Notes: generated by a model not told the origin, from the letters alone. A stretch of DNA of 64,000 nt from Leptolyngbyales cyanobacterium (GCA_038227635.1 JBBRPT010000006.1:1-64000); one strand, 5' to 3'. Positions 40,249 through 57,772 are shown, counted from the first letter of the stretch. Numbers and translations: made by a program.

Positions 40249-40530
40249 GGTAGTGTCCTAGACGTGTTGTTGCAGTTCAAATCGTCAGACTAAACGCTAC
40301 TCGATTGATGAATAATCCAATCACCACATCGGGCATCACGACCGACTTGGAAAAACAAATCGTTTTGCGAGCCATAGCGCTTCGCTCCGTCAAAGGCGTG
40401 CGCTTAATTCGCGTTCGCAACGTTAAGTGCTTTCGCTCAATCTTCTGAGTGTTGCGCTTTCCAACTGTATGGAACATGGGAGCGATCTGCCGTTCATAAG
40501 CACCCCACCCATCGCTGTAGAACTGCATAA
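40249..40530 (-). pseudogene. IS1-family transposase 3' fragment with terminal IR
   Basis: The minus-strand product is ..YSDGWGAYER...HTVGKRNTQKIERKHLTLRTRIKR..RKTICFSKS.., the InsB C-terminal pattern with an internal disruption. A GGTAGTG-type end lies at 40249. The N-terminal two thirds are missing. Confidence 0.7.
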
Positions 40531-40539
40531 TCCAAAAGT

Positions 40540-41518
40540 AACAACATATCTAGAACATTGCCGAGTGACCCGACCGAAGACGCAGCAACGCCCAATCCGT
40601 GGGTGCGAGTGCTCAACGGCAAACGAGGACTCCACATCGTCGTGCTCTACCTGATCCTGGGTTCGTGGCAGGTGCCCTGGAGTTTCTGTATCTGGCATGG
40701 CAAGGGCACTGCGAGTCCCCCTCAACTCGCCTGTAAACTCCTGGCTCATGTGCCCAAGACCCTCACGAAACGGTTTACGGTCATTGTTCTGGCAGATACC
40801 GAGTTGGGCACCGTGGAGTTTCTCACAGCCGTGCGAAAACGGCACTGGCGAGCGGTCGTTGGAATGCGCTGCACTCGTCTGATGGACACGGGCAAGCCCC
40901 TCAAGTCGCTTTACCGTCGTGGAACCCGAGAACAACAGGTACGACTCGTAGGTATGGAGATGCCGTTGACCGTCTCCTGGTTTTGGCTCAAACGCAGCGA
41001 GGGCAAGCGAGAACTGCGGTTTGTCGTCCCCACCCCCTATTCTGGCAGGGCTAATTTAAGGTCGAGAAAGAAAATCTATACCCTTTATCTTGCGTCGAGG
41101 CATTATTTGATGCTGAACGAAGACTCAAGCCTGTGGATTTTATCTGGTGACAACTAATCAGCCCTGCCTACTCTGGGGTCTACCTCGTGCGGTTAGGACG
41201 ACAACGGTGAACCATTGAGGGCTTCTTCAAAACCAGCAAACATCGCTTTGGCTAGCATAGCTTTGGACAGAAGACTCGGTTGGGCATCTATCGCTGGTTG
41301 ATTCTCTCCCTCATTGCTTACCTGCTTGCCCATTGGGTCTCTCGAACCTTCCCAAACTGAGCACCGCTGGATTGGGGGAAGTCAGTGCCCAAGCGATTGC
41401 AGAACTCTTGCCTCAAGTCCTATGGATCAAGCTATTGCATCAGATTCAAAAGTACCGGAAACTTGCGGATGATCTAGGGTTTGAAATCCTCGTCAAGCCC
41501 CTCCTCTTACCTTATTGA
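40540..41518 (+). pseudogene. IS4/IS701-like DDE transposase, 5'-truncated, with in-frame stops and a MITE insertion
   Basis: Reads ..WQVPWSFCIWHGKGTASPPQLACKLL..VLADTELGTVEFL..RELRFVVPTPYSG | insertion | YSGVYLVRLGRQR*TIEGFFKTSKHRFG*HSFGQ... The typical RW.IE..FK motif carries TGA in place of Trp. Confidence 0.7.
41046..41166. mobile_element. 121-bp MITE-like insertion with about 10-bp target-site duplication
   Basis: The inverted repeats are CAGGGCTAAT and ATCAGCCCTG. The flanks are CCTATTCTGG (41036..41045) and CCTACTCTGG (41167..41176). Removing the insert plus one flank restores the transposase reading frame (..PYSGVYLV..). Confidence 0.7.
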
Positions 41519-41772
41519 GACTGGTGCAAGATGTGAGTCAACACATATGCCTGTGAATAACCTACTGATAAGTTGGTTTGAAAGATTGTTGAAGTCACGG
41601 CAATATAAGCTATTGTCACCTTGAGTGGAACCTGCTGAATGATGCTGCCGACGTTTGGCAGAGGTGCATCTTTTGTGGTCAAATAGCGATCGCATTACAC
41701 AGAGTTTGATTCAGAGCTGGTGCCGCTTAGAGCAACCGTGAGCACTGATTAGCCCGGGAGTACCATACTCTG

Positions 41773-41866
41773 CAAAGCGGGATGGGAATTCAGTTTTAGG
41801 TCAGTCCCTAGACTATCAAAGACAGTGGATTTCGCCCAACATTCAAGCTTTAATTCTGACACTTTC
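41773..41866 (-). repeat. left copy of the 94-bp inverted repeat (IR-L)
   Basis: Its reverse complement matches 55173..55266 at about 87 of 94 positions by hand alignment. The inner boundary (GAAAGTGTCAG) is sharp, and similarity decays outward. Confidence 0.85.
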
Positions 41867-41912
41867 AAACCCGCAACCAGTTGAATGCGATTGGCACAGA
41901 TCGTTCGTCACT

Positions 41913-55266: not shown

Positions 55267-55370
55267 ATGAACTGTCTCCATTGTAATTCATCGCTCACCA
55301 CTCAACTGAAACGCACCACCAGTCTCAGCCATAGCGGTTCTCAGTCTAGTCATCGATTTAGGAGACACTT

Positions 55371-55908
55371 TTGAGACTTTTTGGTTATGCATCAGTATCG
55401 ACCAGCCAGCAGTCACTTGACATCCAACTAGAGGCTCTGAAGCACGCAGGGGTCAACCCAGCCGATTTTTTTCCGACAAGGCTTCTGGTGCTCAGGTCAA
55501 GCGTGATGGACTCGACCTGTTACCCATCAAGGTCGAAAAGGGTCATGTCGTTTTAGTCAAAGCCTTAGATTGTCTTGGACGCGGTACTGCTGACATGATC
55601 CAACTCATCAAGGAGTTTGATCAAATGGGAGTTGTCATTCGGTTCTTCGGCGAGGGCATCAGTACCGAAGGGACAATAGGGCGACGATTCTTTCAGCGGT
55701 AGCCCAGGCTGAAAAGCGCCGTATCCTAGAGCGAACCAACGAAGGACGCATTGAGGCTAAGTCAAAAGGTGTGAAGTTTGGGCGTAAACGTCGGGTTGAT
55801 CGGCAAAAGATACTTGCCTTGAAGACACAAGGGATGGAGGCGACGGTCATCGCAAAGCAACTGGGCATAGGACGATCAACGGTGTATCTCTTTCTCAAGA
55901 AGTCTTAG
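55371..55908 (+). pseudogene. Hin/Gin/resolvase-type small serine recombinase with two frameshifts
   Basis: Frame 1 reads [28 protein letters not shown], including the catalytic Ser. After a T7 run (~55466..55472) the frame shifts to [16 protein letters not shown]...[27 protein letters not shown]. After a T-run near 55690 it shifts again to [31 protein letters not shown]...[14 protein letters not shown]. Confidence 0.8.
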
Positions 55909-56120
55909 CGCCCGCTTTCGCCCACTCAACTTCAAACCCCTTCATCTGAGGACACCTAAACGCCTTATAGGGAAATCTTTTTGGGCGAAACCGTAACTTT
56001 CTGTTCAAATGCGCCCGCTAGTCCAAATTGAGCCTCCCCACCCTATCATTTTTGCGACAGAACCCTATACCTTAGGGTTGTGCAAAGAACCCCTTTCTCG
56101 CGCAAATCTTCGAGAACCCA

Positions 56121-57254
56121 TCACAGCAAAGATTGGAGTTGCTGGAGGTCTGCCAATGCAGCTACTAATGCAGTTTGACGGATCTCTGAAGAGAGTTCAG
56201 GATGCTTCACAACATAGGAAATCTGGGTCTGTAACTGATCTAACCCTATTCTGAGGTCGGGCATTTCGTCCTTATGGACAGGACAGAATGCCGCAGGTAG
56301 GTGAGTATCGTGATCAATAGAGGTTGCCAACACTTGCTCAATGTTTAGCCCCAACTGCTGAAGGGTTCGCTGAAGGGTTTCGATCACGCCATGCATCTCG
56401 ATCGGATCAAACACGCGCAAAATGCTGGTCTGAGTAACAATCCCTAAGTTTTGCCCCCAGTTCCAAGACACTACTAATCGTCGCACTTGGCGGTCTGCCA
56501 TCACTTGGTGAGCCGTCCAAAGAGAGTCTTCAGGACTCAGCACAAATAGCGGCGTACTCATCACCGTTTGAGCGAGAGTTTTGCGAACATCCAATCCAAG
56601 TGCCTGAAAATGAACGATATCCCGTTCGGTGACAATGCCAACAGGCTGTTGAACCAAATCGTCTGGGTTTGACGGTTCAACAATGACGATACAGCTAATT
56701 TGATGCGTCGCCATCAATTCAGTTAATTGCACAATAGGCGTGTTGGGTCGTGCCACAATCACCTGTTTGGTCATGACCTCGGCAACTCGTCGGATTTTGA
56801 GGAGGTTTGTGGGTCGCAGAATGTGGCGAATGCTCTCGATCGAGACGACTCCAATCAAACGCTGCTGATCATTGGCGATCACCAAATGACGAATGCGATG
56901 GCGACGAAACAGAAACAATGCCGCAAAGATATCGTGTAATGCCTGTTCAGACATTGAGAGCACGGGATGGTGCATTACCTCACAAATTTTTGTAGTGTGA
57001 AGGTCAGTGCCAACAGCAGTCAACTGCACCAAGTCGCGCTCGGTAAAAATGCCCTGTAGTGTTTCGCCCTGCATGACTAATACACAACTCGATCGCGCAC
57101 CATGAAGAGGATCAGTGCGGTAAATCTGTGCCGTTTCATTCATCAAACTCACTACGTCCACCAAGCAGGCATCGGGGGAGACGATTAGGGGATGACGATC
57201 GATCGCTTCAGCGAGAGGAGGAGTGCCTACTGAATAGTCGAAACCCACGGTCAT
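56121..57254 (-). CDS. CBS-domain protein (two CBS pairs) with C-terminal helical extension
   Basis: Four CBS-like units occur (..VVSLMNE...VLVM..L.GIFTERDLV.., ..HHPVLSM..RHLVIAN..LIGVVSIESI.., ..VMTKQVIVA..ISCIVIV..PVGIVTERDIV.., ..VMSTPLFVL..VRRLVVS..LGIVTQTSIL). Confidence 0.8.
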   Translation of the reverse strand: MTVGFDYSVGTPPLAEAIDRHPLIVSPDACLVDVVSLMNETAQIYRTDPLHGARSSCVLVMQGETLQGIFTERDLVQLTAVGTDLHTTKICEVMHHPVLSMSEQALHDIFAALFLFRRHRIRHLVIANDQQRLIGVVSIESIRHILRPTNLLKIRRVAEVMTKQVIVARPNTPIVQLTELMATHQISCIVIVEPSNPDDLVQQPVGIVTERDIVHFQALGLDVRKTLAQTVMSTPLFVLSPEDSLWTAHQVMADRQVRRLVVSWNWGQNLGIVTQTSILRVFDPIEMHGVIETLQRTLQQLGLNIEQVLATSIDHDTHLPAAFCPVHKDEMPDLRIGLDQLQTQISYVVKHPELSSEIRQTALVAALADLQQLQSLL

Positions 57255-57358
57255 AAAATCTGATCTAACTTAATGGATAATGAGTCAAAGATACAAGCCT
57301 TCAGAATAAAATTTCTGCTCCATCCACCACTGAACTGGGTGTTAAGGATTAAAACTTT

Positions 57359-57772
57359 CTAAACTTTTGGAGTGGACAAATCTGTCTGAGGAGGTGATTC
57401 TAACCCTTTGAGTCTGGGAGTGCGTCCATAGAGGCGATCGAGCACCCGTTTGATCGAGATGCGCTGCCATTGCTGTCCACGCTTGGTGCTGTAGCCCTGC
57501 CGATTTAGCCAGTCTGCCACTTGCTGAAGCGACTTGCCTGACTTGTGATGACGGCGGATTAAATCAATGATCTGCTGCTCGGTGGGGTCTTCGATTAGTT
57601 CACCGTCGAGCGATCGCTGCCCAAACGCAGGTGAGCCATAGCCGACATAGCCTCCCTGAGCCGCTTTCTCTTTGCGCCCTTGCTCTAATCGTTCCCACAC
57701 CTCACGATCTTGAAAATTTTCGCCCATGTGTTTGTGCTGTAGGTCACCTGACTCTAAGCATATCTCTACCAA
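57359..57772 (-). pseudogene. fragment of a serine-recombinase 'Recombinase' domain protein (catalytic domain missing)
   Basis: GGYVGYGSPAFGQR...DPTEQQIIDLIRRHHKSGKSLQQVADWLNRQGYSTKRGQQWQRISIKRVL matches the DNA-binding Recombinase domain pattern. There is no resolvase N-domain, and it abuts the next gene. Confidence 0.55.

Follow-up and report, generated by a model that had tools for sequence, protein, structure and literature searches.

The DNA analysed here, called the window throughout, is a 64,000-nt stretch of a Leptolyngbyales cyanobacterium (GCA_038227635.1 JBBRPT010000006.1:1-64000). It contains a gene for a LuxR-type regulator and, divergent from it, an operon of ten open reading frames (ORFs), which is referred to as the module; regulator gene and operon together are called the unit. 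Relics of the insertion sequence (IS) families IS1, IS4 and IS5, a miniature inverted-repeat transposable element (MITE) and a Tn3-family remnant were identified around the unit, which is also exactly bracketed by two inverted copies of a 94-nt repeat (IR-L and IR-R). Every relic fell into one of two junction zones, at 40.2-41.9 kb and at 53.7-56.0 kb (the latter including the luxR-operon spacer), and none was found inside the operon. The original prediction had described a 17.5-kb island with at least six independent mobile-element scars; five of these relics were found to be real, but the sixth turned out to be a conserved host gene and the right limit of the island was wrong. The data point to an accessory unit which probably lies at a synteny breakpoint and whose edges carry decayed mobile elements. 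The coordinates are collected in Table 1, and the loci and contigs used for comparison are numbered with the prefix L.

Table 1. Features of the unit, its edges and the adjoining conserved block (window coordinates)
Feature	Position	Strand	Remarks
Internally deleted IS1-family element	40248-40563	-	~316 bp, both terminal inverted repeats kept
5'-truncated IS4-family transposase pseudogene	40564-41543	+	Abuts the IS1 element
MITE nested in the IS4 relic	41045-41167		123 bp, non-coding, read from the sequence
IR-L, left copy of the 94-nt repeat	41773-41868		44-46 nt beyond the amidohydrolase stop codon (last operon gene)
Ten-ORF operon (module)	41913-53555	-	Widely conserved in cyanobacteria
Native promoter-proximal region of the operon	53556-53687	-	Retained, conserved
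Decayed IS5-family element	53688-54333 (left boundary between 53688 and 53714)	+	Right terminus at 54331-54333
luxR-type (GerE helix-turn-helix) regulator gene	54755-55168	+	Divergent from the operon
IR-R, right copy of the 94-nt repeat	55171-55266		Begins 2-4 nt after the luxR stop codon
3'-terminal Tn3-family transposon remnant	55343-56030	+	Last 690 bp of the element
Parts of the Tn3 remnant	tnpR 55371-55908; terminal repeat 55988-56030		28-nt res-proximal leader; dead tnpR; 43-nt terminal inverted repeat
Right border of the variable region	56031-56095		Directly follows the Tn3 terminal repeat
Stand-alone Recombinase-domain gene, 122 aa	57359-57727 (ORF to 57772)	-	Conserved; not a scar

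Decayed mobile elements in the junction zones

At the left edge, an ORF at 40277-40528 (minus strand) was found to match positions 62-130 of 131 of Pfam DDE_Tnp_IS1 (E 6e-19), which is the C-terminal half of the DDE domain. Inverted repeats of 24 nt, 79% complementary and starting with GGTAGTG and GGCAATG, were located at 40248-40271 and 40540-40563. The scar predicted at 40249-40530 is thus an IS1 remnant, but not the bare 3' fragment it had been taken for, since both terminal repeats are present; what has been deleted is the insA part. On reading the sequence no target duplication was seen, the flanks CACCAAACC and GAGTGACCC being different. In another locus, L086, whose m456 gene product is 88% identical to that of the window, an ORF similar to the zinc-finger (InsA) N-terminus of IS1-type transposases was observed at 10172-10336, about 200 nt downstream of the amidohydrolase gene, and the contig ends within it; insertion sequences thus seem to be drawn to the 3' flank of the unit in further lineages as well.

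The adjoining IS4-family pseudogene matched positions 63-200 of 200 of Pfam DDE_Tnp_1 (E 4.5e-9). It shared 65% identity with a transposase of L035 that has its full length of 380 aa, and it begins at about residue 118 of that protein. The first ~117 aa are therefore missing together with the left end and left terminal repeat, and two in-frame stops were seen in the translation; the right terminal repeat could still be aligned to that of L035. Because the IS1 element abuts this truncated copy without a target duplication, we infer an IS1-mediated adjacent deletion. The nested MITE has a 12-bp terminal repeat (GCAGGGCTAATT, 11/12) and an 8-bp target duplication (CTAYTCTG, 7/8), and it splits the IS4 reading frame in such a way that the codons for 'YSG' are doubled on both sides. 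The predicted arrangement of a 5'-truncated IS4-like transposase that carries a MITE and lies next to IS1 was confirmed by the Pfam match and the L035 comparison, the MITE being read in the sequence.

In the spacer between luxR and the operon, the IS5 relic matched Pfam DDE_Tnp_1 (E 9e-16) as well as DDE_Tnp_1_2, and its amino acid identity was 70-78% to transposases of 263 aa that are annotated as IS5-family on Nostoc plasmids, in elements of 916 bp. The DNA homology to these Nostoc elements extended over 53732-54333 and included a homologous right terminus. The first ~94 codons are absent, and what remains is disrupted by frameshifts, by a stop codon and by a small insertion within the element. 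At 53688-53700, 12 of 13 positions agree with the right terminus, so the left terminus may survive there, although L171 has native sequence with which part of this stretch also aligns. No target duplication was visible in the sequence. The IS5 remnant predicted upstream of the operon start was upheld by the Pfam and Nostoc-plasmid homologues, and its extent was widened to ~53688-54333. Like intact members of the IS1, IS4 and IS5 families, the three IS relics have diagnostic DDE domains and terminal repeats, the MITE has a target duplication as known MITEs do, and full-length close relatives occur in other cyanobacteria; they differ from the intact families in that IS1 is internally deleted, IS4 is 5'-truncated with a nested insertion, and IS5 carries many lesions.

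The right edge is formed by the end of a Tn3-family transposon. The resolvase pseudogene in it was recognised by Pfam (E 1e-25), and its product was compared by phmmer with PDB, where the Tn3 resolvase 5cy1 (E 1.4e-65) and the γδ resolvase 1gdt (E 7.4e-63) were matched much better than a DNA invertase (E 4e-20). Positions 55343-56005 were 94% identical at the nucleotide level to the metagenomic contig L165, which carries an intact divergent tnpA-res-tnpR arrangement; positions 55344-56030 were 76% identical to the 3.9-kb element of L166, and 55988-56030 matched both terminal repeats of that element at 91% and was matched in L015 and L167 as well. Plasmid matches in blastn also began only at 55344. 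Relative to L165, tnpR has suffered two substitutions (R8S and R68C), a 1-nt deletion and a 10-nt deletion. A tblastn search of the window with two TnpA proteins returned chance matches only; the element has lost tnpA, its left terminal repeat and nearly the whole of res. The predicted frameshifted resolvase/invertase is accordingly a pseudogene, but specifically tnpR of a Tn3-family element with its terminal repeat, and not of the invertase type. Since a 1-bp homopolymer deletion relative to a Logan contig occurs elsewhere in the window, homopolymer assembly errors were considered as the source of the frameshifts; they were rejected because one lesion is 10 nt long and both catalytic arginines are substituted.

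In terms of known systems, the remnant resembles the Tn3 family (Tn3, γδ/Tn1000) in that its tnpR product is ~70% identical to the Tn3 and γδ resolvases, in that intact relatives (L165-L168) show the canonical divergent tnpA-res-tnpR layout, and in having a 43-nt terminal repeat (~38 bp in the family). It differs in being a remnant only, with an inactivated tnpR, no DDE_Tnp_Tn3 transposase, no complete res and a terminal repeat which, as read from the sequence, does not begin with the usual GGGG.

The supposed sixth scar, a recombinase-domain fragment at 57359-57772, was not borne out. More than 1000 homologues of its product were found, and the 120 listed were 112-155 aa long and 69-94% identical across cyanobacteria, including Phormidesmis, Leptolyngbya, Kovacikia, Chamaesiphon and others. 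In L173 and L174 the gene has the same position within the block PPK2-permease-PII-YnfA-YflT-(Recombinase-domain gene)-CBS, and its sequence was identical in an independent Logan contig. The protein aligned to residues 134-227 only of CcrB; compared with large serine recombinases, it was seen to correspond to the alpha-E helix and, of the recombinase domain, to the first half. It resembles a DNA-binding module that has been domesticated, and this conserved small gene merits separate study.

Independent Logan assemblies (SRR19962014/15) were found to reproduce 38386-40747, 41475-52239 and 55996-60789 with a single one-base difference, and because independent contigs reproduce these stretches the structures are unlikely to be assembly chimeras. 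The Logan contigs stopped at 40321 (in IS1), at 40747 and 41475 (in the IS4 relic) and at 55996 (in the Tn3 relic), which suggests that the relics at these stops are multi-copy sequences, as expected in short-read assemblies.

Borders of the variable region and the promoter-proximal DNA

Synteny on the left was determined from 80 kdp loci of relatives and on the right from L173 and L174. Between 64000 and 56095 the window and L173 shared the same order, with ~89% of the nucleotides identical. Their colinearity ended there, 26 nt beyond the stop codon of the CBS gene, and L173 continued with genes for MarC, PadR and CCB1, all of them missing from the window. This alignment moved the right limit of the region from 57772 to 56031-56095. 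On the other side, HisK-KdpABC-KdpD was shared with the window by all 80 kdp loci (closest in Phormidesmis spp., with 86-90% KdpD identity), and none of them shared anything to the right of kdpD, which ends at 37667. Because the DNA after kdpD in the relatives is unrelated to the DNA after CBS in L173, the region lies at a junction of two conserved blocks and is not a simple insertion site. In a collection of 15 billion proteins no relative of at least 90% identity was found for the glycosyltransferase, o119, LuxR, the amidohydrolase or m316, whereas eight were found for CBS; because the glycosyltransferase, o119 and others are singletons at this level, the variable stretch may begin left of 40249.

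The unit itself was recovered in unrelated contexts in L171, L005, L087-L091 and metagenome loci, and since its context differs in every relative examined, its accessory status is supported. Among 80 module loci, the surroundings differed in each and none carried the relics described here. A UDPGT/EryCIII-like glycosyltransferase gene (38880-40166) was observed to be convergent to the amidohydrolase end of the operon, and the same holds for Phormidesmis sp. 146-35 (L087-L089), the two proteins being 23% identical; the adjacency could be a functional link or a coincidence.

It had been proposed that the IS5 scar may have replaced the native promoter and operator of the operon and separated it from the LuxR-type regulator. 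The comparison with L171, L090 and L093 contradicted a replacement of the promoter-proximal DNA, though a distal operator could have been displaced. The ~130 nt next to the operon start were ~80% identical to the orthologous region of L171, with conserved blocks common to L090 and L093, and IS5 was found at the distal edge of this operon-proximal conserved block. On the other side of the spacer, 85-100 nt adjoining luxR were conserved against L171 when the alignment was made with IS5 removed. The non-IS spacer DNA amounts to 554 nt in the window and 419 nt in L171, so that it is longer and not shorter. As judged from these alignments, the native promoter-proximal DNA is not replaced and IS5 merely adds ~645 bp between regulator gene and operon.

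The luxR product was identified by Pfam GerE (E 2.5e-16) and was 76% identical to its orthologue in L171, the closest informative relative (m456 90%); its reading frame ends 4 codons sooner than that of L171 and 10 codons sooner than that of L090. In L171 luxR is likewise divergent from the operon and there is no IS5 element, and by this comparison the divergent orientation is native. An inversion of luxR by IS5-mediated recombination was considered since luxR is co-directional with the operon in L090 and L093, and it was rejected because L171 has the divergent arrangement without IS5. The practical value of the analysis lies in these corrections, namely an anchored right border and the retention of native promoter-proximal DNA and of a native divergent regulator, and expression work on this uncharacterised module need not presume an IS-derived promoter.

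A consensus promoter scan was uninformative. A sigma-70-like hexamer pair (TTGGCG-16-TATACT) was seen at 54290-54317 on the plus strand, in the right end of IS5 and facing luxR; such matches occurred at chance frequency in the scan, and the pair serves only as a lead for a candidate outward promoter borne by the IS. The interval between luxR and IS5 also holds a short hairpin-type dispersed repeat at 54511-54549 (…TTCCCCAGAATGGGGGATTTATAGGGC…), copies of which, 92-96% identical, were found in other Leptolyngbyaceae (L008, L089, L173 and L014).

Origin of the unit and the flanking inverted repeats

We interpret luxR and the divergent ten-ORF operon as an accessory unit at a synteny breakpoint, with edges that carry decayed mobile elements, and we give this reading a probability of about 0.7. 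The unit would sit between the kdp operon block on the left and the CBS-to-PPK2 block on the right; as is common at junctions of this kind, insertions would have been tolerated at both of its edges and in its single long intergenic region, where elements gathered and later decayed. At the left edge, an IS4-family copy would have been struck by the MITE and would then have lost its 5' third beside IS1, most simply via an IS1-mediated adjacent deletion, the interior of IS1 being lost later. In the luxR-operon spacer, IS5 would have inserted ~132 nt upstream of the operon start and then degenerated, leaving the conserved promoter-proximal block intact. At the right edge, a small Tn3-family transposon (tnpA-res-tnpR) may have been reduced to its tnpR end and terminal repeat, and tnpR would afterwards have lost both catalytic arginines and its reading frame. 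The 94-nt inverted repeats around the unit would mark at least one further rearrangement or mobilisation event.

Several observations weigh against this reading. The base composition of the island (50.3% G+C) is near that of the flanks (48.9%), its dinucleotide distance (25 per mille) falls among the control segments (14-38), and HIP1 sites, of which the window holds 54 octamers GCGATCGC, occur at 0.74 per kb in the island and 0.88 per kb in the flanks. The tetranucleotide correlation falls only over 47.5-55 kb, where the tandem-repeat genes are located, and elsewhere it is like that of the flanks. No tRNA gene, Rfam family, intact integrase or recombinase, or flanking direct repeats were found in the 64-kb window. 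The left border lies somewhere within 37668-40247, and no empty site was seen in a relative sufficiently close on either side of the region at once. Relics are only modestly enriched: five were counted in 15.9 kb, where 1.3 would be expected from the background rate (Poisson estimate, P ~0.01), while the other 48 kb hold four elements (one intact IS200/IS605 and three MITE-like repeats), and mobile elements also occur elsewhere in the genome. The order of events at the edges, finally, is drawn from one sequence.

Scarcity of HIP1 is an accepted mark of recent foreign DNA in cyanobacteria (PMC3025956). As the island resembles its flanks in composition and HIP1 density, there is no support for a recent import from a donor that is non-cyanobacterial or poor in HIP1, while an exchange among HIP1-bearing cyanobacteria is possible. 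The arrival of the unit would thus have been by transfer or rearrangement among HIP1-bearing cyanobacteria, and not from a distant donor. The original prediction had taken the density of scars as an argument for horizontal acquisition and repeated rearrangement, and had suggested a comparison of G+C content and tetranucleotide profiles between island and flanks. Accessory status and repeated rearrangement held, but that comparison gave no foreign signature, so recent acquisition from a distant source was not supported. An enterobacterial origin was considered and rejected: a megablast search of 40000-58000 against E. coli genomes and PLSDB plasmids gave no match, and both the HIP1 sites and the relatives of the kdp operon identify the source as a cyanobacterium similar to Phormidesmis.

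The region could also be ancestral and inherited vertically here, with IS traffic eroding its edges only and the relatives having been rearranged instead; we regard this as possible though unlikely. It would agree with the native-like composition, with HIP1 sites at genome-average density in the operon (~10 sites per 11.6 kb), with the wide distribution of the operon family in cyanobacteria, where m456 has 1450 homologues, and with the same-superfamily glycosyltransferase that is also convergent to the amidohydrolase gene in Phormidesmis sp. 146-35. That glycosyltransferase is, however, merely 23% identical, and synteny speaks otherwise on both sides: L173, at 89% DNA identity, runs on beyond CBS with MarC, PadR and CCB1, none of which is in the window, and all 80 kdp loci diverge immediately after kdpD. 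At the 90% identity level the region's proteins form singletons, while CBS has eight close relatives, and m456 is nearer to Leptolyngbya FACHB-16, Nostoc and Scytonema (81-83%) than to Phormidesmis 146-35 (77%), whereas KdpD ranks Phormidesmis first. The region shares with genomic islands and plasticity regions the presence of accessory genes which are missing from the matching site in close relatives, the mobile-element debris at the edges and the position between conserved blocks; it differs from classical islands in lacking a compositional anomaly, a tRNA target, an integrase and flanking direct repeats, and as an empty site was not seen among the relatives, insertion and rearrangement are not separable. 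It is an ordinary genome plasticity region, and scars of this kind are routine in cyanobacterial genomes.

The sole remaining oddity of the region is the repeat pair which exactly brackets the conserved unit. IR-L and IR-R had been predicted and were found to be real: the copies are 94-96 nt long, 93% identical over 94 nt, and have sharp ends. No third copy was detected by nhmmer without filters in the 64-kb window or in 2.25 Mb of related loci, and no match was obtained in 185,579 species genomes, a viral collection or PLSDB (exact-pattern scans of the genome and viral contigs gave 0). The repeat had no Rfam match at gathering or E<=1 thresholds, and its folding z-scores were -0.3 to -1.2; a structured RNA, a terminator or a tRNA-like target was therefore rejected, there being no stable fold and no tRNA genes in the window. 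A Tn3 res site was likewise rejected, as the homology to L165 starts at 55343 and the repeat does not align with the L165 res region or with plasmid-borne Tn3 elements. An origin from the IS200/IS605 element of the window or from any local element was discarded since blastn-short and nhmmer showed no similarity. Native DNA from downstream of luxR or the amidohydrolase gene was also dismissed, Smith-Waterman scores against 25 such regions being within the shuffle null; nor did L171 or L086 have the repeat at the corresponding places. When the outer flanks of the two copies were compared over 60 nt, they aligned better than 999 of 1000 shuffles, a weak residual similarity, and the duplicated unit may be ~160 nt long with a better-preserved inner part. 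Three options were considered for the pair: the repeats could be the terminal repeats that bound a cargo cassette, they could be the ends of two decayed elements lying outside the unit, or an inversion could have left them behind as an inverted duplication.

Mobile insertion cassettes of the Bacillus cereus MIC231 type carry passenger genes without a transposase between inverted repeats. In the same way, the repeat pair could be the terminal inverted repeats of a cargo transposon, non-autonomous and 13.5 kb long, that brought the unit here and was mobilised in trans by a transposase from another locus; we consider this decidedly unlikely. Such an element would account for repeats that bracket exactly the unit conserved with L171 or L086, for the occurrence of just two copies in 64 kb, for their being missing at the same places in the closest relatives, and for a unit whose context differs in every genome examined. 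Yet no target-site duplication was read in the sequence, no cognate transposase was found, no element in the window has a terminal repeat resembling this one, and the genome, viral and PLSDB collections do not contain it. The similarity of the outer flanks is better explained by a longer duplicated unit that reaches outward than by inward-facing transposon ends, and luxR is trimmed by 4 codons at the junction. Compared with mobile insertion cassettes and composite transposons, transposase-free passenger genes lie between inverted repeats here too, but the repeats are 94 nt long, unlike any local IS and without target duplication, and mobilisation is putative. More doubtful still is the fuller proposal that the pair marks the ends of an undescribed large non-autonomous cargo transposon which moves the whole luxR-regulated ten-ORF module between cyanobacterial genomes; if true, it would explain a conserved module (m456 70-92% across orders) in a differing context per genome. 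The repeats are, in any case, the only feature here that possibly points to a mobilisation mechanism.

A serine recombinase gene which starts 105 nt outside IR-R, and one 12-mer in the repeat which is loosely like a hix half-site, could suggest a past or present inversion switch of the Hin/Gin type acting on a 13.4-kb segment; the resemblance of the 12-mer is not statistically significant, and we find this scarcely credible. The recombinase is a resolvase of the Tn3/γδ type (E 1e-65) and not an invertase (E 4e-20), and it belongs to the truncated Tn3-family transposon. It is dead (R8S, R68C and two frameshifts), and both ends of the segment are 3' ends of genes, so an inversion would switch nothing. 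Because the neighbouring recombinase is a dead Tn3 resolvase within homology that begins at 55343, 76 nt beyond the repeat, a switch of this type is excluded.

The operon module and minor features of the window

In 80 module loci the core order of rep gene(s)-m456-m509-m385 was held and was followed by variable genes, and most of the loci reaching far enough downstream ended with genes for an M20 peptidase and an amidohydrolase, in this order. The m456 protein was 70-92% identical in many cyanobacterial orders. Eight core operon proteins had no match in Pfam, NCBIfam or PADLOC, and an N-terminal motif (…TQW[ML]FEAP…) recurs in several of the core proteins. In the products of the first two operon genes, acidic tandem repeats (HYSNPYSNPEFEDEWE) precede a C-terminus that is basic and conserved, and the accessory genes are peptidoglycan-related (Extensin-like_C/M15, M20, amidohydrolase). 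A location of the module on cyanobacterial plasmids was rejected: it was not found on them in PLSDB, where the only substantial match was a 47.5%-identical copy on a Paraburkholderia replicon, and two other rhizobial plasmids matched at only ~25%.

The 509-aa operon protein (48425-49954) was found to be hypervariable, with 23-57% identity between relatives, while m456 and m385 were 60-93% identical in the same loci (L005, L086 and L171); this suggests that the 509-aa component may be under diversifying selection. Two convergent copies of the operon were observed in the soil metagenome contigs L141 and L143, so that the module can be duplicated within one genome. Within 47155-48311 of the window, a 1-bp deletion in an A-run near 48148 was revealed by the independent Logan contig L004. 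It splits the 385-aa gene into ORFs of 64 and 297 aa, whereas the gene is intact in L004 and in all relatives (75-93% identical), and the indel is probably an assembly error or a strain-specific frameshift.

The intergenic DNA of the island yielded no further protein-domain relics, and the large gaps that were tested beyond it yielded no relics of transposases. An orphan histidine-kinase fragment of the HATPase_c type with an internal stop (17047-17789, minus strand) occupies an otherwise empty 743-bp gap and is probably a decayed gene, not a mobile element. An apparently intact IS200/IS605 element was also located outside the island, with a Y1 transposase gene tnpA at 23585-24055 (minus strand) and a divergent tnpB at 24121-25287 (plus strand). 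A MITE-like dispersed repeat was present in three copies (4692-4807, 8577-8718 and 13559-13697), 89-93% identical and in both orientations, and a 54-nt stretch related to it was found in L173 (2503-2556).

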